From assembly GCA_010015585.1 (NCBI GenBank), contig ML975149.1: a stretch of 64,000 bases of DNA. One strand, given 5' to 3'. The translations under genes and the position numbers were made by a program. The notes beneath the pieces are model-generated. The model made no database searches. It worked only from the letters and a program-made list of their open reading frames with translations, and was not told where the DNA came from. Numbering within the stretch: the first letter of the stretch is position 1; each line of letters opens with the position of its first letter. The stretch comes from Eremomyces bilateralis CBS 781.70 (taxonomy: Eukaryota). This document shows positions 2,826 through 53,920 of the stretch, piece after piece.

Positions 2826-3287
2826 ACATGGGAGACAGGGGGACGGGAATTGGAGTTTCAGGAACTGGTCTGTTTTGCTGGACACCATAGATGCCAGAGC
2901 ACAATCTAGCATGATCGCGACGAATTATTGGACGTACAAATTTATCAAATATTATATTGCAATGACGCCAGGATGCTATAGAAAAGGCATAGTGAAGAAC
3001 TAGGATATCTCAATTTGCCCCATCGTTCTCACAATGTGGTCCAGTGGTAACCGTGCCAAATAATCGTACCTCTCAAACCAATTCTCGTACAACCCGCTTG
3101 CTCTCAAACCAGATAAAGCAACATCCAGTACTGTTGCGTACGGTACCTCCCTATGTAAACGAATGTAGATTGCCCAGCAAATCCAAGAAGAGGCTCGCAC
3201 GCCCAGCCGTGGACCCCTGAAATGGATCCCTGCCAGACTCCGCTACGTCTCTATGAACAAGATTAGCCACACACGTCGTATGGGCGT

Positions 3288-19476: not shown

Positions 19477-22400
19477 TTACACTTCTTCCGCTTCCGCCAT
19501 GATCCTCTCCCCTTCATCCAGCAAATCCATGATCATCCCCAGATCCCCCACCATCTCCTTCGCCTGCGCCTTCAGCAACAACTTCTCTGCATTGGCAGGC
19601 AAGCCCAGGAATGCGGGCGGTTCTCGCTCAGGCAGGACGTTGACCCAGTCCATAAACGCTTTCCACGACGTTTGCGGCGGTACGGCGAGGCCATTCTCCG
19701 CGTCTTTGCTCGGCTGAACGAGGAGATGGTTTTCCTCGAATGCATCGGGCGTCATGAAGGATGAGACGAGATTGCTCAGGACCGCGTGATCCTCTTCGTC
19801 ATCGATTTTGCCGCCGTACATCTCCGTGATAAGAACGCGTATGATGTCCCATGGGATGGAAGTGGGGTTGATGTTGGAGCGGGATTGGGCGGCGGAATCG
19901 ACCCAGTAGTCAATGATAAATGCGCAGCATTCGTACTATTGAATTCGTGTTAGCGACAATTGAGGATACTTTGTGAGGCGGAACACTTACGTCGCTGTCA
20001 TTGAACTCCCAGAACCCCTTCCAACCCAACCGCGGCGCATACCGCAACCTCTCCTGCACCACCGCATGTAGGAAAGAGAGCAAAAAGTATATTCTTGCTC
20101 TCTCGACCGGCTCCTGCGTAGCTCGGTTCGCCGCGCTAGCAAGCGAATCTTTCATGTTCGCCCGAATGCCTGCTGGCTGCTCATACATCAAGACTCGGCT
20201 TGCCCGGAGCAAATTGACCGGGATCTTTGGACTGGTCTCCATGCTCAAAAACAGGCGGAAATCCTTGTGCGGCTTCAACGAGTCGATGCGTTTCTCAAGA
20301 CTCTGAAGCCAGGTGGGTGCAAGATGCACGTTTTTGACGAGCACCCACGAGCCGGTTGCTGCGGCGTTGCTCACTGCCTTGTCTGCACTGGCGAGGCCTT
20401 CCGAAGAACCCATCGCAATGTTCGTGCAATGAACACCCATGCGCTCGACGAGGTTGTCGACCTTGTAGCTGGCGTCGAAACCAGGAGACGAACTGAGTGC
20501 GATGGGCGTAGTTGACTGGACTTGGTCCACTATATCGCCCAGATCTCCAGACGCGTCGAGGAGATCTTTACCGAAGACGGTGGTCACAAAACGCTCCACC
20601 GCAGGAACAAGACGGTCAATGCGGAAGATTTTGACCAGCACGAGTGACCGCAGTTGTTGATCGTATCGGTCGACATTGGAGCTCCATACCGGTGGGATAT
20701 GTTGTTCGGCGAGTTCTTCGGTGGAAAACTTGTCCCAGGCTTCGGAAGGAATGGCGTTGATGTGGTCTTTGAACACCCGGAGCTTCATTGCTCTCGCCAT
20801 TGCTTCATCCTTGCGCGTAGTCTCGGTAGACACATCGAGGCCTTCAAGGTCCTTGTCGAGCACCAAGTCAATTAAAGTTTTGTCCATCTTGAACGGAGCT
20901 GCTTGCGCAAGAAGCATCGCGAGCGTGACTCGATCCTTCTGCAAAAGTGACATGGAGGTACGCCGATAAGTGTTGATGAACAGCTCGCGAATGATGAGGT
21001 CGATCCGCGCTTGATGGTGCGTCTCCTTAGCTTGCCGCGCACGACTGAGGACGGTTTCGAAAATGTCGATGAAATACTGCAAGGAGAACTGGTAGAAATG
21101 ATTGATGTGATGCACTTGCTCCAGAACAGCAAAGATTGCAGCGCATGAGCGAGCAATGCCAGTGTACTGTAGGGTAATGTTCTCGACTTCAGTCATAACA
21201 CCTTCTGTCTCTTCAACCTTGGCACTGATTTCTCCCGCTTCTTTTTTGAGTGTTTCAAGGGTCTCAATAACATTGTCATCATCGAGGATATTGCCCCGAG
21301 ACTCGTTAAGGGCCTGCAATAGCTGCTTCTCAAGCTGTCGGAGATGAACGTTGAACTCTCCCTGCATCTTGATGAGGTTCGAGCGCCTCTCATCGACATC
21401 TGGTCTTTCGGACTTGAGCACCTCATTGAGCGATTGGGTTCGAAGACTGCTTTGGGTAATGGTGAAGTTGACAAAGGTGGTGCGGCTGCAGATATCCGGT
21501 GCGAAGGTCGCTGAGGGATCCCGGGTTGACAGGTACAATTTGAATGAAGGCGAAAAATCGATCTCTTGCTTTCCAAGTTGGATAAGAACACGGCCACCGG
21601 TCTTCTGGTATTCTTTGTTCAGGACATGAGTCAGGATTGGATCGAGATGCTCGGCATCTTGGATGAGAATCGGGTTGCCAAATCGTAATGAGCTCTCGAG
21701 TTGCTTCACGAAGGAATCGTCTAAGAAGCTGGTGACGGTGAGACGGCGGTCCTTGCACTCATTCTGTAGGAACTCGTTCACTCGGCCCGATGGATCGATG
21801 ATGAGAGGATAACGGTTGAACCTCTTGAGGATGATTGCGTTCTCCGTGCACAGATCATCCACAGGCAACGTATTCGCCTGCCATTTCAAGCGCTCATCCG
21901 CGGAAGAGAGATATTCCGTAACTGGGTTGAGAGGCTTGAACTTGATTCCGGAAAGCGTGAGCTGTTGGCGCCAGTCATCACTCATCTTCTGGCGGTATTG
22001 TTGGTCGTAGAAGCCTCCATACGTGACGAAGGCCGCCGCAACGAGAACGTCGCCAACAAGCGTGTCAATCTGTGTCTCAAACGACTTGCTCGTCTCCTCC
22101 CAACGCCCTCGCTCCGAAGACAAGCTCTCAAGAAGTCTGACGCTTCGGTCCACCTTGTTTTGCACTCTCTTCATCTCCGTTGAGATGGATTGGGTTTGGC
22201 TGATCAAGGCCGCATATTCCTCCTTGTATCGTCCAATGCTCGCCTCGAGCCTCTTAACTTCGTTCTCAACAGCCATCGCCTCCGCCTTGGTTTGCTCCGA
22301 ATCATCCTGCAGCTGGACAACCTCCTCGCGGAGTGGTCCGACTCGATCAAGAATCTCGGAGAAGTTGACTTGAGCCTCGACCCATTGTACAAGAGGACCG

Positions 22401-25400
22401 CATGCCCTGCTTGCACGATTAACCCGTTCGAAGGTGAACTCCTCCTTAGACAGGAACTCGTTCCTCATACGAACACGGAGGTTCTTCGTCATTTGGGCCT
22501 CATTGTCGTAGGTAACAATGCTAGCAATAAAATCGTCGCGACGGATGATTGCTTGAATGGCCCTCCAATCTGCAGCTTTATGTCCTAGCAGTGTGCAGAC
22601 AGACTCCAATGCGAGCTTCACGCCAGCCGGAGGGCTCGTCATGGATCTGACCTCAGTCAAATGCTGCCTCTTGATGTTGCTGACGCTCTTCTGCGCTTCG
22701 AGGACTGCCGGTTCTGCCCTCGCCAGATCCTGCTCCACGACTGCGCGACGAGCAGTGATTTCCTGCTCTTGCTTCTCCAACGCTTCCCGGATTTCAAGTG
22801 ACGCCGCTTTGCGCTTCTCCGCTTCACGTTGATCCGCAATCATCCGTTGGAGTTTCTCGTTTGCTTCGGCATCCTTTCGCTCTAATTGGCTCTTCTTATC
22901 AGCAAGGCTATGCCGAAGATCGCGGACTTTGTCGACAGTCTCGCGCAATTTGTCCAGACCAACGTTCAAATGCCGCTGTTGCTCCTCTAGGTCTTCTCGT
23001 TTCTCGTGGTGGAGTTTCGCGTATTGTGCCACAAAGTCTAGGAAGTGACGAGGTGTGAGATACGTCGTCTTGTTATGCTGCTTCTGGAGGCGGGAGTTGA
23101 GATGGGCAATTGAATGATGTATGAAGACCATAGAGTTGACCACTGCATCGCGATGTGAAGGCGGGAGGATGAGGTCTGGGTATGCCGCAGGCAGGGTATC
23201 GGGCGCCGTGTAAGACGATCGATCCAGGTCGATTGATTGTGTGAGTTCCGAACCAACCTGGAATAGAGCTTGATCTGACCAGTCGCCGAACCAATTAAGG
23301 ACGCAACGATTGAACAGTGCAGGGCTAGTGGCGGCTTTGGATGAAAGACCTTCTTCTGGCGGATTCATTGTGAAGACGACGTGCAAATTCTTGATGATCT
23401 GCTGCGTGAACCACTTATAGAGCTCCTCATTGGAGTCAAGGAGGAGACCTTGCCTCTGAGCCCCTTCACGACACGATGTCATGAGCGTGGCGTATTCGTC
23501 GCCTTCGAACAATCCAGGAACCTCAGCATTGGCAAGCAGCGTATTCATGCGTTCCAAGAAGCCAGAATCCAAGACGTTCGACTCATCCATGATGAAGCAA
23601 ATCTTCTCGCCTTTGCAGCCACATCTTCGAAGCACGTTTCGAAGGTCGTCATCGAAATCGGCCGCTGAGTATTTTCCGTGCACTTTGATCTGATAGACCA
23701 TCAGGCCGTTCATCCATGCGACAAACCGGGACAGGGTCGTCTTTCCACTTCCGCTGACTCCAATAAGGATAAGATGACCTTGTGGTTGACGGAAGACACG
23801 GTCAATACGGAGGACATGTTCCAAGACATCATTGAACAAGATCAATGGCACGTCGAGCTCTTCCTCGCAGAATGTCTTGAGTCTCGCTTTTACGAATTCG
23901 CGGAGTTCGCCTCTGTCCACGGGCACGTAGTTCTTGGAAAGCCAATTCGAGAATAGAATCGGTCCACCAAGTGATTTTTCTTCATCAATGACAGGGAAGT
24001 GCTCCAGCGCCACGCGGCGAATACAATCCTCAGTCCAGTTTCGCTCGTCCTCGTCCACGAGTCGATCCTGGAATAATCGTAAAGCTTCGTGGGCCCAGAT
24101 GCGAACCAGGCCCTCCACAGACAGGTTCTCCAGTGGCTTGATCGCTTCGTAGAGACCTCTCACCCAGCGGGTTAGTTCACGAGGAGAATAGACGTAGTGG
24201 GGTTGGATGTCTGGCGTAAAGCGTTTCTGCGACTCGGCATAAAGCTGAACCATAGCCTTCGTGAGAGCATCTGCATGACCACGCAGGGAGGGAAGAATCT
24301 TGAGCACGGCATTGTTGAATGTCCCATAGATTTGGAGCAGAGACTGCTGTCCGGGATAATCGACCATGATTAAAGGAGCATGTCGTAGGAAACGTGAGCC
24401 CATCGGCGTCCGGCCGGCATCCGTAGGAGGGTTACATGCGCCAACAAATTGAATGCGGTCCAAGGTCACCCATGTCTTGTCAGTTGTCCTCCAGAAACCG
24501 TTTTGCTCCACCAACTGTCGGAGGAAGGAGATGGCACGTTGAGTACCATACTTGTCCGGGGCCGGAAGATTGATTTCGTCACAGAAGACGACGAGCCACC
24601 TGCCGATCTGCCGAGGCGAGAGAATAACCCCGTTGAGTGTTTTCTTATACTCACAGTGTTGTTCAAAGGTCTTAACGAGCAGCTCGGGGGTCGTTGCACT
24701 TGAGAAGTTCAGACCGACGGTTTCCATGTTTGGAAGTTTCCTGAGCGCGCTAAACAGCGTCATCGTCTTGCCTGATCCAGGTGGACCGCACAGCAGCAGA
24801 GGCTTGTGTTCAGCGAGCCATGAGTAGAGGACTTCTTCGTGTCTCACCGTATCCAATGTTGGAATGACAACGTCCGTCTGGGTAACCGAATGGGTGTTCA
24901 CTTCAATCGCCGGCACCTGGTTCTGCCACATAGTCCATTCAGCCCTTGGCAATAACACTTCGTAGTCGATAAGGGAGGACGCATCGGTCAAGACAGGAAC
25001 ATCGACGGTGGTCAAGCCAGCAACCATGTCTCCAAACGTCTTGCGGTCAGCCAACGGGCAATCCCCAACTAGAGACCAGACGAGCGCGATGAGCAGCTTT
25101 TTAGACAAAAACGCTTCGATCTGCTCCAGCTCGAGCGGGAAGTCCGCATGCTGGATGTTGTACTCCAAAATAGTCCGGCATGCTTTGTTGAGCAACGAGA
25201 AAAGCGTATTGAGCGCTCGGATCGCGGTGAATTCCATAATATGACGGAAGTTGCGCGCTTGCTCGAGAGTCTTCTCGATGAAGTTGTCGCGATCGACTTT
25301 AGCCTGGAGGAAATCGGCAACGTGGGATTGAACCAGAAGGTTCTTCTGCTGCAGCTCGGCTGGGGGAACGGAATCGTCCTCCACGTCTTCGATGGGAACT

Positions 25401-28400
25401 TGGCGGAGGTTGGCGAGATAGTTGGATATCATCATTTCCGTCGTTACAGTATCGGCACTAAACCAGACCATACCGCAGCGACTGACGGTAGCCAATGTCG
25501 CGTACTTGAGAGTCTCGACTTCGAACATAATCCGGACATTGGGAGGAAGGCTCAAACGCTCCCCATTGGGTAGAGTGAGGAGCTTGTTGTCGTCCAAGAC
25601 CGAATTCAAGTTCTCGACCCATTCAGGGTCAACATCTCCATCGAAAATGATCCAGTGTCTCCTGGTATCTTCGCCGCGAAGGTTATCGACAATCTTCCGC
25701 AGGATGCTCGTGAATAAACCGTCGGTCCATTCTCTCGTCGTGCTATCCAATGTGCCGTACAGCTCTTCTTTTGACATGACTTTCGGGTCAATGACATGGG
25801 ACACTCCTTCGACGCCTTCGACTTTCTGAAGCGCTTGTAATAACACGCTCCACGCGCTGGATTTTCCTGACCCAGATGCACCGACCATCATCACACCGTG
25901 ATGCAACCCCTGAATCTGGAAGAGCTGAAGGGTTTTTGCCAGCCAGTCATCATTGACAACGAGTCTCCTCTCTGCAGCAACTTCTTTGATGGCCTCCTTG
26001 AGGTCATTCAAAGGTGCAGGGACATACTCAACGCCTGGGAATGAGTCATGCTCAATTTTATGCATTTCAATCACATCTTGCCCAATTAGCTTTGGTCCCA
26101 TGGTTTCCCGGAGGCTTTGCACGATGATCTGGGGTTCCACAACGTCTTCTTTTAGACTCTCGCTATCCTGAGAAGCCAGTCTTGCTCGCTTCAAGCCACC
26201 AGAGCTGACCAGCACACTCTTTAACGCACGCAGGCCGAAGTCGTAATGTGCCTGCTTCGATAACCGCCGAGCGCATAGATCGAAGAACGGAACCGTTTGT
26301 CGGGAGAGTTCTTTGGCACAGGAGAAACCTTGCGAGTAAAGCATGACCTCCGCAATGAGCTCCTTGTCCGGCTTCGACATGGCGACACTCCGGAAAAGCT
26401 TCTTCAGGTTATCCGGAAGGTTGGATCGGCCGGCATACCCTGGATTCATGGTGATGAAGATTCCCGTGTTCGGCTCCACGCGAAGATTCCGTCCAATGAG
26501 GTCGATCTGATGTTTGGGGTCCTGTTGTCCCTTTCGGAGACCCAGCTGGATGTTTTGGATTTGCTGAGACACAGCCGACAGGATCCGCTCTTCGAGACGG
26601 TTAAATTCGTCGAAGCAACCCCATGCCCCGACTTGACAGATACCGAGGAAGATGCGTCCCATTGCTTGGAAATCGAACGTGTCGTCACAACAGAACACGA
26701 GCGTAAAGCGTCCCAGTTGAAGCCCGAGTGCCTTGACGGACTCAGTCTTACCAGTTCCTGCGGGTCCGTACGGCGAACCTCCGAGACGTTGGGATAGAGC
26801 CTGTGTGAGAGTCATGAAGCATCGGTCCGTAAGTGGAGTGCGAACGAGACGATCAGCAACGCCGAGATATTCGTACCCGTACACGAGGCTGGCATTGGTC
26901 ATGTCGACGTTCAGTCGCTTCAAAAGCTCCTGATCTGGCTTGTACGCATACCGCATCTGGGCTAACCAAAGGTAATGTGATGGCGAGTCTGCATGCACTT
27001 TCTGCAGATTCTCCGTCACATCGCGCTGGTGCACGAACTCCGTGATCAAATGCTCGTACTTCTTTCTCTGCAACGCATCGAGGTCGGTGAGTACGCCGCC
27101 AGCGAGAATGCGAAGCAGCGCAAGTTGTTGTGAGTGAAGCGCGGACAGTCCCTCGCCGCCGCTACGTAAGCACGCTTCCACAGAGTTGGTCCAGCAGACC
27201 TGCGACCCAAGAACGACGATTTGGGCGGGGAACGTCGAAACGTATTCATCGAATGAAGCTGCATCGATCGTCGGCGCAGCGAGGATTTCTGTAAACTGAG
27301 CTACGGCGTCTGCAAGGAGCTCTGCGAGAGTCGTCTTCATGCTAAGTTCCAGAGCGGCGAGCCACTCGTTAACTTTAGGGATCTTAACAAGGGAGACTTC
27401 ACGCCTGAGCATCACTTGCTCACCCTCTCGCGATGTCAACCCCAAGATTATGTTGTCGTCATTTGTGATGAGGCCTGCGATGCCGGCGAACATCTTTCGG
27501 AGATGCTTGGCGACACGTGTAGTGTTGTTACTGTTGCCGATAATCTCCAACAGATCCTCGTCCCCGACGAAGTAGAACCGAGGGAACGAGACGCGCTCGC
27601 GCTCGAGATACTCTCCAAGCGCTTTCTGGATCTTGCCGAGGAGCTGCGCTAACCGCTCAAGTTTCTCCTGGACTCCCGGGATGGTGAGCACTTCCAGAAC
27701 GAACGGCGAACGAACGACCTTCTTCATCAGGTCGAGGAACTCGGAGTTGATGTTCTGGAATCGGCCGGACTCCATCGGAAGCAGGTGCTTGATATCTGCG
27801 TTGCCGGTGAACACGCCTTCGAGATAAACCCATTGCCGCTGCACATCGATCCAAACATCGAAAAGCACATGGACCCGATTCAGCTTCTCTTCCCAGTTGC
27901 TTGCCTCTTCCTCGAACTCCTTATAGTACGGGGAATGACGCATCGCCTGCAACGAGTTGAGATTCTCGCTACACTTCGCGAAGAGGTCGTCCCATCCTCG
28001 GATGAGCCGGCATTTCGTCTGGTAAGGGATCAAGTCCAATGCGTAGGTTGACCACGTTTCGCGAACCTGTCGCACGAACTCTTCGAGAGCCATTTCGCCT
28101 TGCGCTTGCGCGATCACGTCCCGGATGATATTCTCGGACGGACCGAGCTGCAGGTCCCAGACGTCGCCTAGGGTCATACTCAGCTGGCTATACCGCTTGC
28201 TAGGCTTCAACATCTTGAAGATCTTGATCCAGTGTCGCTCTCGGACGGCTTCGGATCGCATGTCTTGAAGGAGAGGATTGACCTTGAGTAGTTGGCGCAA
28301 CACGTTCTGGACGTGCTCGAACGCCGCATATTGCCGCATGCGAGCCGGCATATCTTTCGTCATCTGGATGAGTTCTTCCAGGCCCTTTCGCAGACGCCGA

Positions 28401-31400
28401 GGTTGGATGGAAGTCCATAGCGTCTCTCGAAGGTCGTTCAATCGCGACCAGATCGTGCTCAGTGCGCTCCAAACGGATTTGAAGTCTTGAACCTCCTCAA
28501 GAAGGGCTATTAACACTGTCTCCGGAGAACCGGGAAGATCAAGTGCCTCCTTCGCCTTCGCCACCATCTCGGACTCATTTCGAAGCTTCAGAAGCCGTGA
28601 ATCGAACGACTGCAGTCGTGAGCTGGCTTCCTCCGGAGGGATTGTCCCTGACACCGGTTTCTCTTCCGCCCACTCCCGTGCAACATCCGCGATCTTCTGG
28701 CTCACAGCCCGATCTTCCGCCACGATCTTGGCTCGCAGTGCATCGGTCTGATCCTGGACGATCTTGGCCTTTCGCTCGAGGATGTCGTTGAGCGTCGCCC
28801 ACTCATTCTCGACCTGATCGACATGTAGCCATTCGGACGGGAACTGATAGCGCTGACGGGACAGCGTCGTTTGGCCGGACCGGAAGGTTTCGATTTCCGG
28901 AGCCCATGTCTTGACGCGTCGTTTGCACTGCTGGACCGTGGTGATGAAGCTGACGGCGTGGGCGGTTGACGAAGCTTCCAGGGAATGCGTCTCGAGGTCT
29001 TTTCGCGCCTTCTCGAGCTCGTTGAAAACGTCTGTCATACGGGCACCCAGTCGCGAGGCGAAGTTGATGAGGATCTCATGTTGCCATTGGTCGTACTTGG
29101 CATTCACCTTCACCTGGACCTGCTCGTAATCGACCGTTAAGAACCGGCCGAATCTCTTGCTATTGGCCGATGTATCGAAGGTCGATCGGCTCTTCCGGAG
29201 CTCTTGGAGAAGTTGCAGCCACCGTGCGAGGTCGTCGCCGAGATTGTCGTAAACGTGCTCCGACCGGAGATCCCACAAGCTTTGAAACTGTAGCCATTTG
29301 GCAACGTACTCGCTAGTTTCGGCGACGCGAGCTTCCACGCTGCTGTACACCGTGGTCAGGCTATTGGCGCATTTGCTCGTGAGCTCGGAGAAGGTTTCCT
29401 CCACGCTGGCGTCAGTACTAGTCTCAACTCGCAATTCATATCGGGTTGCTTTGATCTTCGGCAGCGCGCAGATGATGGATAGCCATTTATGCAGCTGCTC
29501 GAGCCAACTGGCCCTAGCGAATTCCAGCGGTGGGTCCAAGTATATCAATTGATTCTTCATGCAGACCTCTAGTAGAATCGCGTTCAACTGCGGCAGGTAC
29601 TTCGAGGGCTCTTTGTCTGGCTCGGCTTGCTTGAGGCGAGCCTTGGCCGCGTCGGACAATTCCTCAGAATCAAAGAGCTCAATCCATTCGGCGATGGCAT
29701 GGTCTAAACGCGCCCGCAGAATATCTGCGACGCGGTCATTCATCCCAGCAACCCAATGAGGGAGGTTGACATAGTTTTCGAGATTTAGTTGATCGACCGC
29801 GCCCTGGATGGTCCCAAGATGTCTTAGCAGGTCTTCGCTGGTGCAGTGGCAGGTCTCCAGGTCGCGCAGCGCAGCTTGGACGGTTGCGAATATTGACGCC
29901 AGGGTAGCGACCTTCGTTTGCAACAGCGATACTGCCGAGGCGAACTCGCGGATAAATTGGACGTGTTTGCTCTCGCCCCTCGAAACGGGTGCGGAGCCGT
30001 CTGCCGAAGGGCCGGCCGGGAACGGCTGGCGGAAGTGGATGTCGTAGGAATGGACAATTGATTCCCATCGCAGCGGAATTCCTTTGGCAATCAAGCTTTG
30101 AGCGTCGTTTTGATATCCGGAGAGGAGTAAGGAAACGTCGGTCATGCCGCTGATGACGCGGGATGTTTGCGAGTAGGTCCGAACCGATTCCATGAGAGAG
30201 ACTGCGAATGGGTATACGCGCTTTGCCTCCTTCGAGATGTTCGCAATGGCGTGAGGAACCTGATAGTTCAGCCAGAGTAAATTGCGGACCTCCTTGAACA
30301 GCGTGATGATCTGAGGATCGAAGTTTACCGCGATTTCGTAAAGGTTTCCAGACGCTCTTGTCTTGTTGATTGCGAATAGTCTTCCCGAGATTGTAAGATT
30401 CCGTCTTGCAACCTCATGAAGCCATGCGTCGAACACGGGTCTCGTGTCGAGCTTCTTTCGGAACATGTTGCTTTCGCTCTGCAACTTCTGCCCCTCTGCA
30501 TGGAGATCCCATTCTTTGCCAAGAATATCCTCGACGCGCTTCATGTACCCTTCCAACTGCCTCTCGATTTGCCGGGCCCAGATCACGGCGCCTGACACGG
30601 GGGGTAGGTCATGAAGCTGAGCCATCCCGTGGGCCTCGGAGTGGCCATACTGCTGCTTAAATCGTTCATGAAGCGCCGAGATGTCCGCTTTCACGTTGTC
30701 GATGAGCTGCGTTTGATATTCATGAATGGCGCTGCGAATTTTCGGTCGGACAAAGAGCGCATTGAACTTGGAGAAGACCCGAAACATTTCGTTCGCGTTC
30801 CGGGCAGTCGCAAGGCGATCCCGTAGTCGTGCGATGATGGAGTTCTCCACTCGTTGGGTCCGGTCATTGTAGGCAACTTCAGCGTGAGCCCACGTCTGCG
30901 TCCCCTCCATGGTAACATCGAGGACATCAATGTCTTTAACAGCAGCGTATGCTTGGGCAACCTCCTCGACAGCGTCAACATCGCCCATCTCCGCGACAAG
31001 AACAGCATGGGTGCCATTGATCGAATCGGACAGATCTTTGACGACACCAGAGCTCGCAGGACCAAGCACGTTGATGATGGTTCTCTGGAGCTGTTCGTGG
31101 TTGTGGCGGAATTGGCCGATATATTGGAGTCGCTCTTTCGTCTTCAGATGGTTTGCGTTGACCTTGACGGGGATGAAACCATCTTTTCGGCGTTTCAATG
31201 TCTCTCGAGCGACATTCGTGAATCCCCTCAGTTGGTCTTCCCAAGCAATCCAGATTCCGTTCGTGATTTCAATGACCTGCTGGAACTCGCGGTACTCCAG
31301 GTGCATAAGTCGCCGTCCATTGACCAGAGAATGGATCTTCGCGTCCAGGTCGCTAGAAATGGCCTCGACAAATGGAATCGCTCGTTTAATCGGATATGGT

Positions 31401-32676
31401 GACGCGCGGAGCTTCTTATTCAGGTGCGAGAATATGAGGATAATCGCCTCTTTCACCTTTGCCAGCGACTGGGAGGATAGCAGCTCTTCCAAGGGAAAAT
31501 CGCGCATAAGCAAGTTGTACTTCTGCACCATTTCCATCGTCTCTTTCAGTCCTGTGTCTGCGCTGAAGCTAACCGTAGCTTGGAATCGTTTGGCATGCCG
31601 CAAGACTTCCAGAGTCAACCGCACCCCATCGCTCCGCAATTGCTCTTCGATATTCTCCAGCGCCGACTCGAAGCTGATCCAAAAATTAATCTCTTGCGAG
31701 GCACTTCCTGTTGCTGGATCCCGTGTCGTCTTGGTGATAGTTTGAATGTTCCGGATCCAACCGTTCACCGTGGCTTGCAACTGGTTCAACAAATGGGCAT
31801 CGGTGAACAACTTCTGGGGAACCAAATCTATTTTAGGACGATCGTCTGAGCGTGTCTGGGCTGCATCCAGTCCCATCTGAATAAGCGGGTGCATCGGTAG
31901 CGATAAAGCCGGGATCTCAATGTTCTGCTGCAGATGTTGAAGGCTGAGTTCGAGCTCGGCCAGCTTCTTCTTCGCGCCAGGGATTCCGGTTCGAGAATCC
32001 GACTGGCCTTGAGATACCCATGGTCCTGATTCATCGAGTTGTCCCCGTTCGTATGCATCGAAGAATGGGCCGAGGGTGTGGTGAAGGAAGGAATGGAAGA
32101 CCTGAAATGGATTCGCTGCTGGGACGACCGAAGAAGACTGCGCTCCGGCCGCACTCAAGCCAGGGAGGTTTATCAGGCGAATCTGGTCGGCTATCGGGGC
32201 GCTGGGATCGAGCATTTCCGCTTGTTTGAGAAACGCGACGGACGTGACGCAAGTCGTGGTGGGCTTGAACTCCCCGGAGAGAACATATCGAAATCGGTCG
32301 CTGCTAAGTCCTGTATTGCTGTGATTAGTTACGCAGATAGAACCATGGTGAGATAAATCGCACCTTGCTCCCCATTCACAGCATCCGTATCATCTTCTAA
32401 ATATGCCTCTTTGAAGCAATATAGGGCAACAGCGCCCTCCTTGGAAAACCATGTACATTGCGAAAGGGTATTCTCAATTTGTGACGGGGTTAGGATGCTT
32501 CGATTCTGTTCCAAGTCCTCCTTCGTGGCGCCCAAAGTGACTTCCAGCACCCGAGTGATATGATCGAGGAGAATGTTCGGGTCGACAGCTGCGGGTGGTG
32601 AAGGGAGGCCGGGCGTGTCTGTTGGGGAGATGCCATTGGAGTTGACCCCTGGAATGACCGCCAGAGGGCCGTCCAT
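19477..32676 (-). CDS. DYN1: Cytoplasmic dynein heavy chain; exons 32676-32364, 32310-19991, 19935-19477
   Basis: More than 4300 aa with four P-loops ([32 protein letters not shown]), [38 protein letters not shown] and the stalk coiled coil. Both introns have canonical ends. Orthologue of nudA/ro-1. Confidence 0.99.
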
Positions 32677-38200: not shown

Positions 38201-40035
38201 TATGGCAAGCATTAGGAGTTTCGAACGTCGAGGGGCTGCCGGAGGAGCCTCCGCCAATCACCAATGAAGACATCAAGATTGCAAGCAATTTCTTGCGCGG
38301 CACAATCGTGGAAGGGCTGAACGATCCGACCACTGGAGCGATCAGTGCCTCCGATTCTCAGCTCACAAAATTCCACGGCACCTACATGCAGGATGACCGA
38401 GATCTGCGAGACGAGAGGAAAGCTCAGGGTCTTGAGCCCGCATATTCCTTCATGATCCGATGCAGACTACCGGGTGGTGTCGCTACTCCCGACCAGTGGA
38501 TCAAAATGGATGATATCGCGACGACGCTCGGTAACGAGACGATGAAGTTGACCACGCGACAAACCTTCCAATTCCACGGAGTGGTGAAGGGCAAGCTCAA
38601 GCCGGCCATGCAAGCGATCAACCGAGCACTCATGACGACCATTGCGGCCTGCGGTGACGTGAACAGGAACGTCATGTGCAGCGTCATTCCTGATCAATCC
38701 GCATTCCATGCGGAAGTGCACGCAGTGTCGAAGCGTGTCAGCGATCACCTGCTACCGAATACGACTGCGTACCATGAAATCTGGCTGAAGGATGAAGACG
38801 ACAAGAAGACGCTAGTTGCCGGAGACGCGGTCGTGGACAACGAGCCGCTATATGGGCCCACCTACCTTCCTCGAAAGTTCAAGATCACTATTGCTGTGCC
38901 ACCCCACAACGATACCGACGTGTATGCCCACGACATCGGCCTGATCGCCATCAAAGGCAAAGACGGCAGCCTGGAAGGGTTCAACGTCACTGCTGGAGGA
39001 GGAATGGGCGCGACGCATAACAACAAGAAAACGTATCCGCAAATCGGCCGCATGATGGGCTACGTCGCGAAAAAAGACACCCACATAGCCTGCGAGAAGA
39101 TCATGCTCGTGCAGCGCGACCACGGCGATCGCAAGAACCGCAAGCACGCCCGTCTGAAGTACACCATCGATGACCTGGGCGTCGACGTCTTCCGGTCCAA
39201 GGTTGAGGAGATCTGGGGCAAGGCGTTTGAACCCGAGCGATCATTCAAGTTCGAGAGCAACATCGACACGTTCGGCTGGCAAAAGGACGAGAACGGCCTC
39301 AACCATTTCATGCTCTTCATCGAGAACGGCCGCATCGAAGACACGCCCGAGTTCCCGATGAAGACCGGGCTGCGCGAGGTCGCGAAGGTGCATAAGGGCG
39401 AGTTCCGCCTCTCTCCCAACCAGCATCTCGTCCTGTCGAAGGTCGCAGACGAAGACGTCCCGGTGATGAAGGAGCTGCTGAAGAAATATAAGCTGGACAA
39501 CACCGATTTTAGCGCCCTACGACTGAGCAGCTCGGCATGCGTTGCCTTCCCCACTTGCGGTCTTGCGATGGCGGAATCGGAGCGGTACCTCCCGGAGCTG
39601 ATTACCAAGCTCGAGTCGACGATCGAGGAGGCGGGTCTCCGCCAAGATAGCATCGTCATGCGCATGACAGGTTGTCCCAACGGCTGCGCACGACCATGGC
39701 TCGCGGAGGTGGCGTTTGTGGGCAAGGCGTTCGGGGCGTACAACATGTACCTGGGCGGCGGGTACCATGGACAGCGGCTCAACAAGCTGTACCGCAGCAG
39801 CATCAAGGAGGACGAAATCCTGGAGATCCTGAGGCCGATGATGAAGCAGTACGCGAAGGAGCGGGAGGAGGGGGAGCGGTTTGGCGACTGGTGCGTCCGG
39901 GCCGGGTATATTAAGGCAACGAGAGAAGGGAGGGATTTCCATGAAGATGTAAGTGCTTCAATCTACTCACGATGATGGGATGCAGTGCTAACGATATTAC
40001 AGACGGCTGAAGTGGAAGAAGACGACGAGGAATGA
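35225..40035 (+). CDS. MET5: Sulfite reductase (NADPH) beta/hemoprotein subunit; exons 35225-35255, 35362-35501, 35557-39948, 40003-40035
   Basis: PFOR-like N-terminal domains, flavodoxin domain (SDNGNAE, TSTAGQGEFP), KFHGTYMQDDRD, siroheme/[4Fe-4S] cysteines CVAFPTC and TGCPNGCARP. Confidence 0.96.
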
Positions 40036-42922: not shown

Positions 42923-44469
42923 ATGAAGCCCTTCGTAGTCCTATCAGTCGCGGCCATTGCTAGCTCTGCAGCCGTTCCGAATCTTGGTAAGCCACTTCCC
43001 CTCGCCTCTTGGATGGTTCGACTAAGTCACACACAGTCTCTCGCCAACTTGGAAACTTTCTATCCCTGTTCGGCGTCGGTGGTGCCGTCCAAGCCCCGAT
43101 CCTAAACCAGGAGCTGAAGCCACAACACGACCCGGCAGCGAAGCGTGAACTCAAAGTATGGGGACCGTTCAAACTCCAGCCCGCCAACGTGAGTGCCAAC
43201 CAACAGTGATCTGCACATCCCCAACAACTGACATTCCCTAGAGCACGCACGGAAAACCGAATGGGCTGAAGCTCGATCCAAGCAGTGATGTTGTCAGCGC
43301 GGCACTGAGCGGTATCTGCAATGGGTGTATGGTACTGGAAGCCCAGGGGCAAATGTCGTTTGCGAATGGCTCCCGCCAGGATATTCAATTCGGAGTGTAT
43401 ACGCATCACATCCTTTTTGCTGATATCGGGCGTCCGGCAGTCAGTCTACCCCTCGGAGCTGTCTGCCCCGACGGTATTAAGAATGCAGGTGGCTTCGCAG
43501 GCCAAGGTGCAGCCCTCGCAGGCAGTGGTCCACCGCCAGGAGTGACTGCAAGTGGCCCACCAGGGCAGAGCGAAGGTCACTCTCATGGACGCAAGCGCCA
43601 GGCGCCACCGGGTTCTAAAATCCCTCCAATATCCATCTTAGTCGGGAATGGAGAAGATGCATCTCCACTGGTGTTTGCGTCGAAGGACCCATCAGTCAAG
43701 AGCGGGTTCTACATCGGCGAGGAGGACAAGTTCGGCCTCATGGCAGAAGTGATAAATTATGACAACCACGATAAGGATGTCTGGTTCTCAGTCGATATCG
43801 AATACATCGAGGGGCCTCGTGAGCCGGACTATTTGGACGTCGGTGGTGGAGCTTTGAATATCGATGGCTGCAGTCGTGGACTGGCATTCCGTTCGTTCCA
43901 AGCTCTTGTGTATCGTTGGTCAACATGCTAACTGTGAATCCAGATCCACCAGCTGATAAAGCGGTCTCCTATACTTCGAATGACTTTATCGTCGGCGCAG
44001 ACGGATACCTTCTAAATTTTAGTCAGTTCTTAATCTACTTCCTTGGCCAAGCATATCAAGCTGACATGTCAACCAGCCCCTCACCTCCACGATGGGGGTA
44101 TAAATATCGAAGTGTTCCGTAATAAAACACTGGTATGCCACTCAGACGCCGTCTACGGTGACGGCGAAGGTACGACTGCGATCGGCGGGGAAGCATGGGA
44201 GACCATCACAGCATATACACCTTGTGAGAAGGCCGTAAAGGTGTCAAAGGGGGACATCCTCAGTATGTCTGCGGAATATGACCTAACGAAGCACCGACTG
44301 TGAGTTCAGAATCTCGATCTGCCAGTTGCCCAGTTCGTTCTGCTAACTCATCTCCAGGCGGCCCGATTCCAATAACCATGAAATGGGAGCCGAAGCGATG
44401 GCGCTTGCAACATACGTGTACGCACGAGAGCCTGTTGCACCGGCACCGGCACCGGCAGTGGAGGAATAG
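42923..44469 (+). CDS. Secreted protein of unknown function with His/Met pattern of copper type-II monooxygenase (PHM/DBH, SURNod19-like) fold; exons 42923-42986, 43037-43188, 43242-43890, 43944-44021, 44077-44299, 44358-44469
   Basis: Signal peptide MKPFVVLSVAAIASSAA. Motifs VYTHHI, TPHLHDGG, AEYDLTKH, GAEAMALATY and paired Cys. All five introns are canonical and frame-consistent. Confidence 0.75.
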
Positions 44470-45330
44470 GAACCTCGCAGCTCAAAAACTGTGGTCTCTT
44501 GTTGTGGTTCGAGATATTATCGTGTATATTAGAAATGCTGCCACAAACATTGATGCGACAAAGATCTCATCGCATTGCCATGGCAAATACGGTACCAACC
44601 CGATTGAGATGTTTAGAGTGATGTCCGCGGATACTTGTATCCTCAACCCTTTCCAAATGCGGCACCAAGGGAACGCGTCCAGCGTCGACTGGAGTTCGAT
44701 CCAGCTGTGGCCGTCCGAAACCATTGTTTAGCAGTGATACCTAGCTAGCAAACGCACTGCTCACCGTCATTGGCTTCTCTTTCATCATGGGGATATCTTC
44801 CAGCGTCACATGTAGGATGGGGACGCGACGAGGTGACTAGAGAGCAGAGCGGAGACTAATGACTTAATGAGTGTCATGGTCGACGTCCCAAAGCGGTTAG
44901 TGCATTCCGACCTTCACTCTTTGTTTTAGTAGCCCGGCATGCGATCATTCAATCTGGAGCCTTTGTGAATTCACTTACCTTAGTTCCATTGGTTTTTGCG
45001 ATTTTACAGATGAAACTACTAGGATACTAGCCAACCAGTTGTCAATATCTTAGATGGTCAAGTGTATTATTGACATGTGAATCATGCTTACTATGTGAAT
45101 TCAATCTGCACATGAGCTGCGTCTCCCACGCATCAACAGACAACAAGTGAACGTGGGCTATGTTCTATTGCCAGCGCGTTTCACTTCACTTTCGAATGAT
45201 ATAAGTATTATGATTAACTCCAATACCTACCACCCATCCATCTCTCTCCACACCTCCTTTATCACAGGGCCAGACACCGCATTCTCCCAGTCTGCTCGCC
45301 TCAAGAAACAGCACAATCACACGGACGACC

Positions 45331-46239
45331 ATGGCGAGACTAAATGAGAATAACCTTCGTCGGGCCACCTTTAGCTCGCTTTTCCGATCGAATGGCGGGC
45401 AAGGGAAGGGGAAGGGAAAGGCTGTCCCTCGCCGACACCGGTAGGTGAGATCATGATAGCGCTGAACTCCACATTGGTATATCGTTGACCCTTTAATTAT
45501 ACCAATCCGTATAATCGCGGCTAACCAAACCACTCACTTCACAGTATCTTACGCGACGATATCCAAGGCATCACGAAGGGTTCCATTCGGTAAGGAGCAG
45601 CGTGCGATCTCATCATGATCCATATGAAATCCAGAAACTAATATCCATTTCTGCTTAGTCGACTGGCTCGTCGCGGTGGAGTGCGACGCATTTCGGCCAC
45701 GATTTACGATGAGATTCGCAAGGTGATCAAGATCAGGGTCCACGAGGTATGCATTTTGTTACCCATCCATCCTAGTCTACTGTTGAGCGCGTTCGCTGAA
45801 TAATGGTGTCCGACTAACTTGCTATGTAGACACTGAAAAACATCACGATCCTTCTTGGTACGTGCTGTTGAAACGAAGAACGGTTATGAGTGACAAATGA
45901 ACTATCTGACTTAATAATAGACCACAAGAATCGCAAAACTGTCATGACCCGAGATGTGAGTTGCACCGGTCCTATTTTCGAGATTGACATGACTGACAAT
46001 TGCTATTCTAGGTGGTTTACGCGCTGAGGAGAGTAAGCCGATTCTTCCAGGTTCATGTGATGCGGCAGATGATGGCTAATTCTCGATTGCGATATTTACA
46101 GATGGGCACGCCAATCTACGTAAGTCTTGGTGCTCTCTTACAATGGAACCCCCCGATTAGCTTCTTACAGTTGTGATAGGGGTTTGGTTCCAATGATTTC
46201 CTCGCTCGACACAAGGAGGTCCTTGTTCACGGCCACTGA
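45331..46239 (+). CDS. Divergent histone H4 variant (H4E/hH4v-like), 8 exons: 45331-45440, 45545-45589, 45659-45746, 45830-45857, 45921-45955, 46012-46032, 46102-46119, 46180-46239
   Basis: Absent from ORF track. Spliced product: MARLNENNLRRATFSSLFRSNGGQGKGKGKAVPRRHRILRDDIQGITKGSIRRLARRGGVRRISATIYDEIRKVIKIRVHETLKNITILLDHKNRKTVMTRDVVYALRRMGTPIYGFGSNDFLARHKEVLVHGH*. Retains H4 hallmarks IQGITK, IRRLARRGGV, RKTV, DVVYAL, YGF. All seven introns are GT-AG. Confidence 0.9.
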
Positions 46240-46676
46240 TTCGTCATCGAACGTTTCTTGGTGCAACACCTGTGCGGTCGCATATCTCTACGGTTTTCGC
46301 GACGTCTTTTAGCCTTGGGGGTCCATGGTTATTGGTTGATTGTAATCCTCCCTATGGTTGTCTATGGCTGGAGGGTTCCATGAGATGGGAGATTTCTATC
46401 TGTTAGGGGCTCAAGGCAAATCTATAGGATAGCATGATTATAATGCTAATGATGGACGAATAACATGACGGGATGTCTGGGCTGTCCTATCTGGGTCCGA
46501 AAGAGGATTCAACATGTTCAAAGATCAGGTGTGAAGGACACGCCGGTGTGAATTTGGCGTGTACGGCAAATAGGAAATTGAGTTGAGCACCGAGCTCCTC
46601 CAATATGCTCAATGAGCTAGCTCGTCACTTCATTATTCCAATCCTAACAATAACGCGTTTCGCCTCGCAAAAAAGA

Positions 46677-47801
46677 TCAGACAGCGTAGGGATTATCGCC
46701 GTATTTTTCATGCTCCTTCCCATTGGACCTCGACATCCTACCTGCACTGCTTCTCAGCACCCCTCGGCTAGCATCTACCAGAGGATTAACCCAAATATCC
46801 CTGCCTTCCGGCTTTTCGGATGGGATCTTATATCGAGCAGCACCTTGGGTATGTCAGCAACCTTGCTCCTCTCGCATTTTTCTAGACCATAACACTTACC
46901 ATGCGCAACAGGGTGCGAGTTGATGTAAACACTCTCCCAATTGCCCGATGGCACCGAATAGACCTCATGCCAGATCGAAAGGTAGTCGGCGGTCCCTTCT
47001 TTTACGATCTTGTTCCACCATTCCCAGCCACGACGGTGAATTGGGTCATGGGCGAACTTGTGAACACCCCTGGAACTGTCAGTTGTGGTATCATCGTGGT
47101 GGATAGAGAAATGCCTTACTCAACGTCCCGGAAGTAATACAGGTACATTATACCGTTGGAAGTCGATCGTTCTCCACCGCCCAGCCAGGCACCAGAGCCG
47201 AGCATGCCGTACTTGTCCATTTCCTCTATCCGCAAGTTTAGACTTGTCCACCTCATGTCCGCGGGTATCATGAACTTACTCTCCAGACTCTTTCCCATCT
47301 CGGCGAAATATTCGCCAATCTTTTTTCCGTTCGGCGAGAAAACGCCCATCGGGCTATCCACTACTCGTCAGCACAATGCGATGCCTACAGGTACCGATAT
47401 AAAATGGGGCGAACGTACTGATTTATCCTTACCCCCAGCAGCAGCACCACGACACTTCCATCCGACGGCTTATCCCCAAACTGCCCTCCAGCGCTCGGCA
47501 CCTGCGCGGATGTCTTCCTCCCCACCGCCACATTCTCCAAGTACTCGTTCTTCTTCCACCCCTTCGTCTGGGCGACGGTGTCGATCGTGGCCCAGGTCAG
47601 CCAGACGAGTCCGGGAAGCAGGGCAACGCGAAGAGGAAGAATGAGAGTAAGGATGCTCTGGAGAACAGCGCCGATGGCAATTATGGTGGGAAGAGCGAAT
47701 TGATCGCGCAGAACGGCCAGGCCGAAGGAACCGCGGACTTGGCGGGTAGTTTCTGAGGGGATGGGATTTGGGGACGGGGAGAGGAGCGGTGAGAACGCCA
47801 T
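46677..47801 (-). CDS. DUF4188 / af470-like monooxygenase (dimeric alpha-beta barrel type) with N-terminal membrane segment; exons 47801-47419, 47353-47280, 47225-47120, 47069-46900, 46843-46677
   Basis: Spliced motifs VVVLLLGVRINHPMG, YYFRDVEGVHKFAHDPIHRRGWEWWN, IWHEVYSVPSGNWESVYINSHP, PLVDASRGVLRSSAGRM. Confidence 0.8.
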
Positions 47802-48366
47802 CGTAGACAATCAGAAGCGATGACTTGGGTGAAGATGGAGTTTGCAGTATTTCAGATGATTCTCAAGGATTTATAAAGATACTATTAATGGTCTTTAGGA
47901 CTTGCGACAGAGGACCGCCTAGTTCGAAGACGTAAATGGTGAATTCGTGACTGAGACACGCATGTCGGCGTACTCCTATGTACGATGATACGGCCGAAGC
48001 AAGGGTTGAAACCGCCACCATTTGTCCATTTGTCCCGATCCCGACTGCATCTGATGATCACTAATAATGTCTAAGTTCAACACCCAAACTTCATCATCGA
48101 CTTGACGACTTCACGCTGTTTCTGTTTCAGTACAGAATACATCCTATGATGCATTCAAACTACGATATCGATACCAGAGATACTCTATACAATTACGATT
48201 GTTGGCAGTATTGTGGTCATATGTTTTGAAGACTTACTGTGTTACTACAAGTAGCAAGCCTGATTGCCTTGGTCACAGATCATATCGTTTGGGAGAAGAC
48301 GACTTCGGAACAGAAGACGCGAGCTTTTGAAATTCGATGACTCTAAGCTAAAATGATGACCTTTCC

Positions 48367-50883: not shown

Positions 50884-51417
50884 CTAAGAAAGCCGCCGGA
50901 TCCGGAAATAACATTTATAGGTCCCGACGTCTTGATCTCGCGACATAGAGCCGCGCGTGAACATCGCGATGGCCACTGGACTCGACTGAAACGAATCGAG
51001 TGGTGACGCTCGTATCCTGGAGATGGACTCGGTGAGTGTGCAGGTCGCGGTGCACTGTGCGAGTAAATGGTGGCCATGCCTGCCGCCCGCAATCCTGAAA
51101 CGGGCAGAGGATGGATTCTCTGCCGCGGCCGGTAGGTTTTGTATCTCTCGATCATGCCGCAGAGGACCGCTCATGAAACTGAAACCCTCCAAATGTTCGC
51201 ACCCGGCCTTCTTACATCTGTACAGACAGCGATTGCCATGCGTTCTGCGAACCTCTCGCACATGTCGGAAAAGAGCGCCGGAGGAAGTGACGGTTTCGTG
51301 ATGTTCGCACCCGGGATTATTGCACATGTATAGGCCGGACGGTTGGATCGTCCAATGATCTATAGACGGATCAGGTTTTGGTACTTGAGATTCTAAGAAG
51401 GGCTCTTTGGAAGCCAT
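50884..51417 (-). CDS. Small ORF with degenerate C2H2-like zinc-finger motifs; gene or relic uncertain
   Basis: YMCNNPGC...ALFRHVREVRRTH and YRCKKAGC...PLRHDREI resemble C-x4-C...LxRH fingers with damaged second His. Confidence 0.35.
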   Translation of the reverse strand: MASKEPFLESQVPKPDPSIDHWTIQPSGLYMCNNPGCEHHETVTSSGALFRHVREVRRTHGNRCLYRCKKAGCEHLEGFSFMSGPLRHDREIQNLPAAAENPSSARFRIAGGRHGHHLLAQCTATCTLTESISRIRASPLDSFQSSPVAIAMFTRGSMSRDQDVGTYKCYFRIRRLS

Positions 51418-51509
51418 TGTAATGATCCGGATTCTTCAGTGTCGTCGAATCGGCTTGTCGAACCGGACGAATTGCGCGGCCGTCAGCACTTCATTACAAT
51501 TTACAGGGC

Positions 51510-53625
51510 TCAAATATCATTGGCCACCTTCTCCACCCACGCAAAGTCGGGATCATACCCAACATGGATGCGTATGGGAAAGGTTCCTGAAATATCCCGG
51601 TACAAAACCTCACGCGTCCCATCCCCTCCACTCTTGATCTTTTCCGCCTTCTTCATCCCCTTCTTCTTCGTTCCCTTCTCCGGTTTTCCGAATTTGGACG
51701 CAACCTCCCATACTTTGTAGGTCACGGATACGCGCTGGAGTTTGAAGTGATCCTCCCATATGAACTTTCCACTCCCGCTGCCATCGGCACGAGACAGGAA
51801 ACCATTGACAATGCCAAGTAGGATATTGCGACCAGGCTCATCTGGCTGAGGATGCCTTGCCCAACTGTCATGGGGGAAGCAGGTGATGGATGTCAGGTTG
51901 GTGCCACGGGAGAGCGCTTCTCCAATTTCATTCTATGTGTGTTAGTACGTTTGGTAGGATTTGACCCGTAGAATAATGGACAATCCCTACAATTTCTGCT
52001 TCTTCTGGTGCAAACTCGAGATCCTGCAATTGAGGCAAGTTATCAATGATAGCCGCCACAGTTGTTGCTGATAGGTATGGAATCTTGCAGCCGCTGACCA
52101 TCCCCTGGTACGATATTTTCAGACTTCTCAGATTTTGATGCTTGAGAATAGCCTGCAACAGCGTGTCCGGCAGTCCAGGATTAGTGGTGATTGTATTCGG
52201 ATATTGATTATAATCCTTGACTTCCAGGGTCGTCAAAGTGTCGAACGCAGAGATGAAGCGACATTTAGCCTCGAAGTTTGTCTGGATATGTTCAGGTGTC
52301 TCCCCGTAGCGGTCATCTGACATCTCCAAGCATAAGCTTCGCAAGCTAATGCCTGTAGCACTATTATGGGACGAGGTTGCTAAGTTCGTAAGATGTTGAA
52401 AGAAGAGGTGTTTGCCATCTGACAAATGTCCAAGTGTGAGCTCACACAACCCCATATAGTCAATGGCCCTTTGCAACGAAGTGATGAAAGTCGCATCAAA
52501 TGAGACGCCACTAAGAGTGAAAGACTTTAAGACGGTAAGACTATACTCTCGTTTCGCAAGAGCATCGTCTGCAGAGACCTTCTTCTCCCAATCTTGCAAA
52601 AAACTGATCGCATAGCCGTTTCCCTTTACGACTAGGCTCCGAAGTGTTGACGTCGAGTTCAGAAGTATGGACTGAACGATGTTATTGTTGAAGCTGCTGT
52701 TCTCAACACTTAAATGCTTCAAGTTCTTGATTTTTGCTAACGGTGTCATGGCTTCAATTTCGGGCTCGTGTAGTCGCAAAGCTTGGATGTTCTTTAGTGA
52801 TGCAATGCTCTGACCCATTGACCTGCGAATTTCGTGAGCAAGCTGCAACTATAACGAGGATGAATATGCAGGGTGTCGACGAAGTACTTACTTTGTAAGA
52901 AAATACACCTCCACAATCTCCAGATTGTTCACATTTTTAAACACCTCTTCCACGTATCTATGGACAATGTACTGATGCTTTCGTCCTGGATCTGCAACAC
53001 CAACCACCATCTCGCGTACATGGGATGCAGAAGCTGGTTTGGCGTTCGCATCGAGGTGGCTTGGATATCGTTCTTGTTGACCTTTGTAATTGCCTTCTTT
53101 CTTCAACTGCCTCTTCTGTGCTATGGTGAGATGTGGTTCAAGGGCACGAATGAGCTTTGAAATGTGCGCGTGAAACATGACAGCGACAGCGACGCGCTTA
53201 TGAAGCAGTGGCATCATGAGCGAATAGTATCTTTTGCAAGTTCGACCCAGTTTGCCTATGGTTGATGGGTCTTTGATCTAGGGTTTTTGAAATTAGTAGA
53301 GTAAGGATATGATGCCTTGAGTTCATCTACTCACGTTGTCTAGAATCAGGAACAGTATTTCTGCCGGCAGAGACGATAGAAGGTCATTGGATGAGCTGAA
53401 CTGGGCTTGAGAAGGCGGCTTGATGCCCTTCCCAAGTGTATTCCCAATTGCCGGTTTTGTCGCTTTTTTCTTTGGCCCGGTACTCCCTTCTGCAGGAGGT
53501 GCTGGAGCTTTACGCTTCTTGTTGTTCCTGACCACTTCAACAGGCGGAGGTCTCTGGACCTCGACTGGTTCCGGGCCATCTTGGGTCACCTGATTTTGAA
53601 GTCTGGTGCTTCTTCTTAATGACAT
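51510..53625 (-). CDS. F-box domain protein with LRR-like C-terminus; exons 53625-53335, 53277-52892, 52822-51991, 51932-51510
   Basis: LSSLPAEILFLILDN/IKDPSTIGKLGRTCKRYY F-box across intron 1, basic NLS-like N-terminus, LxxLxL repeats. Three canonical introns join four ORF-track fragments. Confidence 0.8.
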
Positions 53626-53920
53626 TTTAGTTCGCTTGAAGTTTTTAACCTGGATGTAATGTCAAGGTTAGTGCCGTGTCTAGTTAGGTGAAGTTGTCAA
53701 CTCAACTCTGTCAAGGTGAGGCAGAGCAGCAACGAGGTTAGGCAACCACGCTATCACGTGCTCGCGTGCTGATGGCAAGCCTCCAATCGCCAAGTGCAAA
53801 TATTATATGTATTGATTGAGAGATTCAAAAAGTATGGGAGAATTATGGAGGAGTAAAAGAGTTGAAATAGATATGGTTGGATGGCGATGATTACCAATAA
53901 CCACCTCGGCTTGAGATCGA

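Follow-up and report, generated by a model that had tools for sequence, protein, structure and literature searches.

Is the H4-like gene at positions 45331..46239 of this DNA from Eremomyces bilateralis CBS 781.70 a working histone, and if so, of which kind? The window that we analysed is a stretch of 64,000 nucleotides of contig ML975149.1. Histone H4 variants are rare, and the ascomycete H4E/H4v family has recently been tied to ATRX-type genome defence. A sequence-only reading had proposed a hidden, heavily split member of that class, without lysines at the K16 and K20 equivalents of canonical H4.

The gene lies on the plus strand. Its eight exons (110, 45, 88, 28, 35, 21, 18 and 60 nt) join to 405 nt, which encode 134 amino acids and a stop codon. 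The seven GT-AG introns, the protein of about 134 residues and the tiny exons that had been read from the letters are thus all present, the smallest exons being 18, 21, 28 and 35 nt long. The introns, every one of them GT-AG, measure 56-104 nt and have phases 2, 2, 0, 1, 0, 0 and 0. A CTRAY branch site is found at -30 to -8 in 6 of the 7; shuffled sequences have 0.58 such introns on average and 0 of 5000 shuffles reached six.

The arrangement of these exons resembles that of Aspergillus nidulans H4E (hheA, AN12228). The text of Flipphi et al. 2024 (PMC10878826) describes the H4E pattern as a phase-2 intron i1, exons of 29-32, 16, 88, 63 and 21 nt, then a final small exon of 19 nt, which is 18 nt long in Dothideomycetes. 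Exon 1 (45331..45440, 110 nt) has the start codon and a lengthened Arg-rich N-tail with three lysines, and it ends within the basic patch. Intron 1 (45441..45544, 104 nt, phase 2) is equivalent to i1, and the K20 codon is absent directly after it. Exon 2 (45545..45589, 45 nt) corresponds to H4E exons 2 and 3 fused (29 + 16 nt), without intron i2. Intron 2 (45590..45658, 69 nt, phase 2) equals i3, and exon 3 (45659..45746) is the 88-nt exon, which encodes helix 1, loop 1 and the first half of helix 2. It is followed by intron 3 (45747..45829, 83 nt, phase 0), the equivalent of i4. The 63-nt exon of H4E is cut here into exon 4 (45830..45857, 28 nt) and exon 5 (45921..45955, 35 nt), the latter encoding loop 2 with the K79 and T80 equivalents; the intron between them, intron 4 (45858..45920, 63 nt, phase 1), is absent from the text of PMC10878826. 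After intron 5 (45956..46011, 56 nt, phase 0), exon 6 (46012..46032, 21 nt) matches the H4E family model, and after intron 6 (46033..46101, 69 nt, phase 0), exon 7 (46102..46119) is the Dothideomycete 18-nt exon. Intron 7 (46120..46179, 60 nt, phase 0) is the one without a CTRAY branch site. Exon 8 (46180..46239, 60 nt) encodes the end of the core, a C-terminal extension and the stop codon; a helix is predicted in it with low confidence (residues 121-131). Six of the seven introns therefore stand at described H4E positions. Unlike the H4E pattern in that text, intron i2 is lost, one phase-1 intron is extra and the Eurotiomycete insertion is absent, and the same text allows intron gains and losses within the family.

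Is this structure also seen in RNA? One RNA-type sequencing run provides a 1285-nt contig with exact joints for introns 1-5 (intron 1: 45439>45544, GT..AG). Exon 1 occupies contig positions 362-471, and base 46180, where the contig picks up again after intron 7, is contig position 707, which equals the summed modelled exons; introns 6 and 7 are thus supported by length, with no separate joints. The RNA nature of the run is itself deduced: its contigs skip GT-AG or CT-AC introns in both neighbouring genes as well as in the H4 variant gene, and therefore represent spliced RNA. The run may be that used for the genome annotation, so it is not independent of the public gene model. With all splice sites intact and a spliced transcript present, the earlier impression of a functional-looking gene stands. 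The word hidden was only half right. An open reading frame track does not see the gene, but it is already annotated, though without the name H4E: a public E. bilateralis model of 134 amino acids, labelled 'histone-fold-containing protein', is identical in sequence to our spliced product. Three other candidate acceptors for the last intron (46160, 46170 and 46215) would make the end of the protein shorter or unlike H4; they were rejected, since the spliced contig restarts at 46180.

The contig begins 361 bases 5′ of the start codon (44970-45330), and this leader has nine upstream ATGs, of which that at 45210 begins a reading frame of 45 codons, out of frame with the H4 variant and overlapping its start. 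A putative TATA-like element on the plus strand (45200..45207, 124 bases 5′ of the start codon) suggests that the main transcription start may lie 3′ of most of these upstream ATGs. RIP indices across the window gave no RIP signature at the gene.

We are highly confident that this gene is a single Dothideomycete orthologue of H4E/H4v, which are the same family according to the text of PMC10878826 and that of a preprint on Neurospora crassa H4v (Carlier et al. 2026, bioRxiv 10.64898/2026.08.11.744009). Introns, tree and profile scores agree on the membership that the sequence-only reading had proposed with Neurospora hH4v and Aspergillus H4E in mind. In the canonical H4 genes of this genome the only introns are two of phase 1, after codons 3 and 49, and the variant has neither of them. 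In a tree built from 50 rows and 80 columns, with one tandem and one gapped model excluded, the variant falls on the H4E-like side, apart from canonical H4 (split 99/93), and is nested inside further forks (99/89, 98/89 and 93/92); the H4E-like grouping formed one side in 100% of 200 bootstrap trees. This tree was built without the reference A. nidulans H4E and N. crassa H4v, a Neurospora sp. protein with an RGGP motif and a 35-aa extension serving as stand-in. Left out of the H4E profile, the variant still scores 127.9 bits on that profile, compared with 104.7 bits on a canonical one, and it has 7 of 10 family signature substitutions, including P32G, F61R, I66L, T96P and L97I. In profile searches with a 33-sequence alignment, tandem or extended models of canonical H4 crowded out other matches, and no named H4E was gained.

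Could the gene instead be a canonical H4 duplicate in decay, or a variant that arose independently of H4E? Its ungapped 80-residue core is 57% identical to the canonical H4 of the same genome, and according to the text of PMC10878826 no stable tree could be obtained there for the H4E family. However, the profile scores favour H4E, the transcript is spliced, and an intron pattern with six of seven introns in common with H4E and none with the canonical genes largely refutes a decaying duplicate. We give such an origin almost no credence. No second variant copy was found in a protein search of the genome, the one copy lying on contig C1. Two genome searches, with PF15511 and with PF00125, did not pick up the H4 variant itself, so that a further split paralogue might have escaped detection.

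What kind of histone does this orthologue encode? Like canonical H4, it has an ungapped core, helix 1, loop 1, R45, K79, T80 and the YGF end, and its best solved-structure matches are all histone H4 (E 8e-30). Unlike canonical H4, which is a near-invariant protein of 102 amino acids with K5, K8, K12, K16 and K20, it is 134 residues long with other introns, longer tails, K44R, K91R and neither K16 nor K20. The lengthened, replaced N-tail reported earlier has 40 residues before the D24 equivalent, compared with 24 in canonical H4; in 42 relatives this length ranges from 21 to 119 with a median of 52. The His-rich C-terminal extension is also real, with 16 residues and three histidines (0-35 residues in the 42 relatives, median 9). 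Helix 1 and loop 1 are near canonical (9/11 and 6/7 residues) and the DNA-contact residues are retained along with them. Helix 2 is heavily substituted, as had been noticed, its C-terminal half keeping 1 of 16 canonical residues. In the nucleosome, the parts that are kept here bind DNA and H3, while the changed parts (Y72, K91 and the T96 region) face H2B and H2A. By this pattern, the variant would be competent to pair with H3 but altered in its dimer docking. Pfam names no family for the protein: the matches to TAF (E 0.0023) and CENP-T_C (E 0.033) are both below the cut-off. A monomer structure prediction (pLDDT 71, pTM 0.43) has helices 1 and 2 fused, and its Foldseek matches, H4 chains at an rmsd of 12-27 Å, add nothing to the sequence information.

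The absence of lysine at the K16 and K20 equivalents holds under both ways of aligning the tail. When residues are counted back from D24, the K16 equivalent is a proline and the K20 equivalent an arginine; when a one-residue gap is allowed, K16 becomes an arginine and the K20 residue falls into the gap, at the intron-1 junction that the RNA-type contig confirms. With both lysines absent, this copy cannot be modified at either position, as the earlier reading had it. The remaining N-tail lysines are residues 26, 28 and 30, therefore the tail is still acetylatable; the basic patch, Arg-Arg-His-Arg at residues 34-37, has no lysine and is shorter by one residue.

As a trait of the class, the loss does not stand. 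K16 is kept in about 35 of 42 sampled relatives and replaced in about 8-9 (one of these is a doubtful gene model), K20 is kept in 41 with one relative lacking K20 only, both are kept in 33 when positions are counted back from D24, and none lacks both. Neurospora H4v, moreover, is acetylated at its K16 equivalent. Replacement of K16 as such is familiar, being described in the text of PMC10878826 for many H4Es, among them the A. nidulans protein. The 42 relatives come from the best 120 of 422 protein matches, of which 52 were named ascomycete proteins; ten redundant Aureobasidium proteins and the unnamed matches were dropped. On sequence comparison, the double loss is private to this lineage among these 42 relatives, a sample biased towards query-like proteins and without Eurotiomycetes, so that 'one of 43' is not valid for the whole family. 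Here the K20 codon is deleted, unlike in H4E, although the 29-32-nt exon 2 in the text of PMC10878826 suggests a one-codon difference elsewhere too. Our literature searches brought up no paper on a double loss of K16 and K20 in H4E; neither 'K20' nor 'Eremomyc' occurs in the main text of PMC10878826, and its supplement may include this species. This lineage-specific loss leaves an unacetylatable Arg/His basic patch and probably tunes, rather than defines, the function of the protein.

The orthologues provide a guide to what that function may be. The sequence-only reading had called the class poorly understood, a description now out of date, as the text of bioRxiv 10.64898/2026.08.11.744009 presents H4v as a cofactor of SAD-6/ATRX. 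According to that text, N. crassa H4v forms complexes with H3 and ASF1 and sits in MNase-resistant nucleosomes; its deposition, at about 2,700 sites where chromatin is perturbed, takes place only if SAD-6/ATRX is present; H3K9me3 and the small RNAs of a perturbed array require it; and it raises DIM-2-dependent RIP, while its deletion causes no growth defect. It is acetylated at the K8 and K16 (K41) equivalents and tentatively ubiquitinated at K45, which by our own count, four residues past K41, is the K20 equivalent. A. nidulans H4E likewise binds H3 and is nuclear, and its deletion has no phenotype in the text of PMC10878826.

By analogy with these systems, we think that the Eremomyces protein probably is an ATRX-deposited surveillance histone that works as in Neurospora, with the DIM-2 output probably missing. 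The variant would pair with canonical H3 on ASF1, and an ATRX-like remodeller, SAD-6, would put it into nucleosomes outside replication. Deposition would take place where chromatin is perturbed and sensitive to nuclease, for example at transposons, tRNA and rDNA loci and promoters, and there the variant may help to nucleate DIM-5-dependent H3K9me3 and small-RNA silencing.

Are the partners for such a pathway encoded in the genome? Like Neurospora, E. bilateralis has ATRX-like, DIM-5-like and RID-like proteins. Among 26 matches of an SNF2 profile search, an open frame of 1817 codons on contig C7 (1699-7152, minus strand of the examined segment) combines SAM, DUF7607, SNF2 and helicase C domains; its best solved-structure match is ATRX (E 2.6e-36) and its Atlas cluster is named CHR20. 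The helicase motif V of this SAD-6-like protein seems one or two residues shorter than is usual in this family. A Pre-SET/SET gene is a candidate DIM-5, a name assigned here. Only two C5 methyltransferases were found, at C9:688052 and C2:857516. The first, a 763-codon frame, has no BAH domain and groups with short ascomycete enzymes, and is therefore RID-type; the text of PMC7862722 describes RID as lacking BAH. The second is DNMT5-type and fused to SNF2. DIM-2, which is needed for the SAD-6-dependent arm of RIP, was not found with PF00145, TIGR00675, BAH or DUF7893. As the genome is a draft assembly in 95 contigs, DIM-2 is likely, though not certain, to be absent. With no DIM-2 found, the DNA-methylation and DIM-2-RIP output known from Neurospora is probably missing too. 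Eremomyces does not appear among the matches listed (15 of 168) in the DIM-2 and DNA methyltransferase literature. A search for the HP1 chromo-shadow domain had no match in the genome, nor in the controls.

The likeness to Neurospora has its limits. The Eremomyces protein shares N- and C-terminal extensions and about 60% identity to canonical H4 with N. crassa H4v (hH4v, NCU04338) as described in the text of bioRxiv 10.64898/2026.08.11.744009. However, the Neurospora protein keeps K16 (its K41, acetylated) and K20 (its K45), bears an RGGP motif for methylation and ends in a C-terminal part of 35 aa, none of which is present here, where the C-terminal extension is 16 residues long. The Neurospora function itself comes from one preprint, not peer reviewed, on a fungus of a distant class; the string 'Dothideomyc' is absent from its main text. 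The lack of a phenotype in A. nidulans, the two missing lysines that are modified in Neurospora, the missing DIM-2 and the distance of some 245 kb to svf1 all weigh against our reading, as does the fast evolution of the gene.

How fast is this evolution, and is it still constrained? The end branch of the variant is the longest in the tree (1.14, median 0.33), partly because no close relative was sampled, and its leave-one-out family score is the second-lowest of 43. L62 and K44, which nearly all relatives keep, are changed. One might therefore read the gene as an H4E orthologue under relaxed selection, spliced and probably translated, that has been drifting since the DIM-2 part of the pathway was gone, with the K16 and K20 losses neutral. 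It would fit that no other of the 43 sampled, query-like members lacks both lysines, that four profiles failed to find DIM-2, and that, according to the text of PMC10878826, A. nidulans can do without its H4E, while Penicillium, Ophiostomatales and Botryosphaeriales have lost the family outright. However, of the 27 differences from the family consensus, L62V alone falls at one of the 24 core sites that are invariant (P = 1.1e-4), and two lie among the 31 sites conserved in 90%. The 80-residue core has no indel, the splice sites are all intact, the SAD-6-like frame is unbroken, and the missing close relative has lengthened the branch. The variant thus appears fast-evolving but constrained, with 23 of 24 invariant core sites spared, and drift under relaxed selection is unlikely, though it deserves to be kept in mind. 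Another possibility is selection for something new: an H4E whose unacetylatable, one-residue-shorter patch and rewritten helix 2 have been selected, making it constitutively compacting or giving it another partner or chaperone, so that it no longer equals Neurospora H4v. Both lysines are gone while the Arg/His patch stays, K16 acetylation is reported in the text of PMC10878826 to oppose compaction, the C-terminal half of helix 2 is far below the family mean of 36% canonical residues, and the genome has a divergent H3-like gene. Against this, K16 is replaced in several relatives and in A. nidulans too, and the H3-like gene is carried by a hAT transposon, as is known for passenger genes. We regard re-specialisation as distinctly improbable.

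The surveillance histone that we favour would be of comparative value. The family, the gene structure and a function are already published, and what is new here is one more species, which is ordinary for a family found across Pezizomycotina; the analysis adds RNA support for the Dothideomycete intron pattern. The only copy without both K16 and K20 among the 43 in our query-biased sample, in a genome with no detected DIM-2, may also be a natural test allele for the tail marks of the SAD-6/H4v pathway. A bolder version, quite unlikely in our view, is that the SAD-6/H4v defence module has been re-wired: DIM-2 was lost, H4v shed both patch lysines and one residue, and a permanently unacetylated H4v would silence via H3K9me3/RNAi or DNMT5 without the DIM-2 arm. 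If true, this copy could serve as it stands as a separation-of-function allele for the roles of K16 acetylation and K20 modification in ATRX-deposited H4v.

The position of the gene in the genome also bears on its origin. The text of PMC10878826 describes H4E as unlinked to H3 and near nudA, with longer divergent N- and C-tails, a conserved core and basic patch and, in many H4Es, K16 replaced, and all of these are found here. Canonical H4 has two identical copies, on contigs C2 and C28, and H3 adjoins the C28 copy; the earlier statement that the variant is not paired with an H3 gene is thus correct. The main reading frame of the dynein heavy chain nudA (19910..32389, minus strand) lies about 13 kb from the variant and is transcribed away from it. 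In Eurotiomycetes and Dothideomycetes the H4E locus is reported, in the same text, between nudA and svf1. Here, unlike in that arrangement, four genes separate the variant from nudA, and svf1 is on the same contig but about 245 kb off, therefore the reported three-gene order is broken. The link to nudA is kept, which suggests an old core gene rather than an accessory acquisition. The 'accessory block' of the sequence-only reading describes the nearest neighbours, which are small enzymes and unassigned genes, but not the surroundings as a whole, as dynein heavy chain, sulfite reductase, MCM6 and a tRNA endonuclease lie within about 5-13 kb.

Some further features of the neighbourhood may be of use to curators. 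Between nudA and the variant, a gene with a PAPS-reductase domain stands head to head with a sulfite reductase beta subunit gene (33612-39975). Directly upstream of the variant is a spliced, expressed gene without a Pfam match (43000-43965, plus strand; intron 43189-43241). On the other side, the contig of the variant reaches 46758, near or overlapping the 3′ end of a convergent, intron-rich, af470-like monooxygenase gene on the minus strand (46240-47900). Further on, a multi-exon gene (50884-53661, minus strand) has weak leucine-rich-repeat matches (E about 0.002-0.01) and, by eye, a possible F-box-like start.

The H3-like gene mentioned above has two introns and is distinct from both canonical H3 and CenH3. 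It lies inside a hAT transposon (115-6914 of contig C57, and again on C64) with inverted ends of about 137 nt that are 88% alike, and a transposase that is broken by stops (Dimer_Tnp_hAT, E 1.2e-9). We set a partnership with the H4 variant low because this gene is a hAT passenger; capture of H3 by hAT elements in other Dothideomycetes is described in the text of PMC6710886. The two contigs are identical over bases 1-7039, and may represent separate copies or a double assembly of one region. The TpA/ApT ratio of the hAT region, 0.8-1.1, exceeds the value of about 0.5 for genic DNA and is thus mildly skewed in a RIP-like way.
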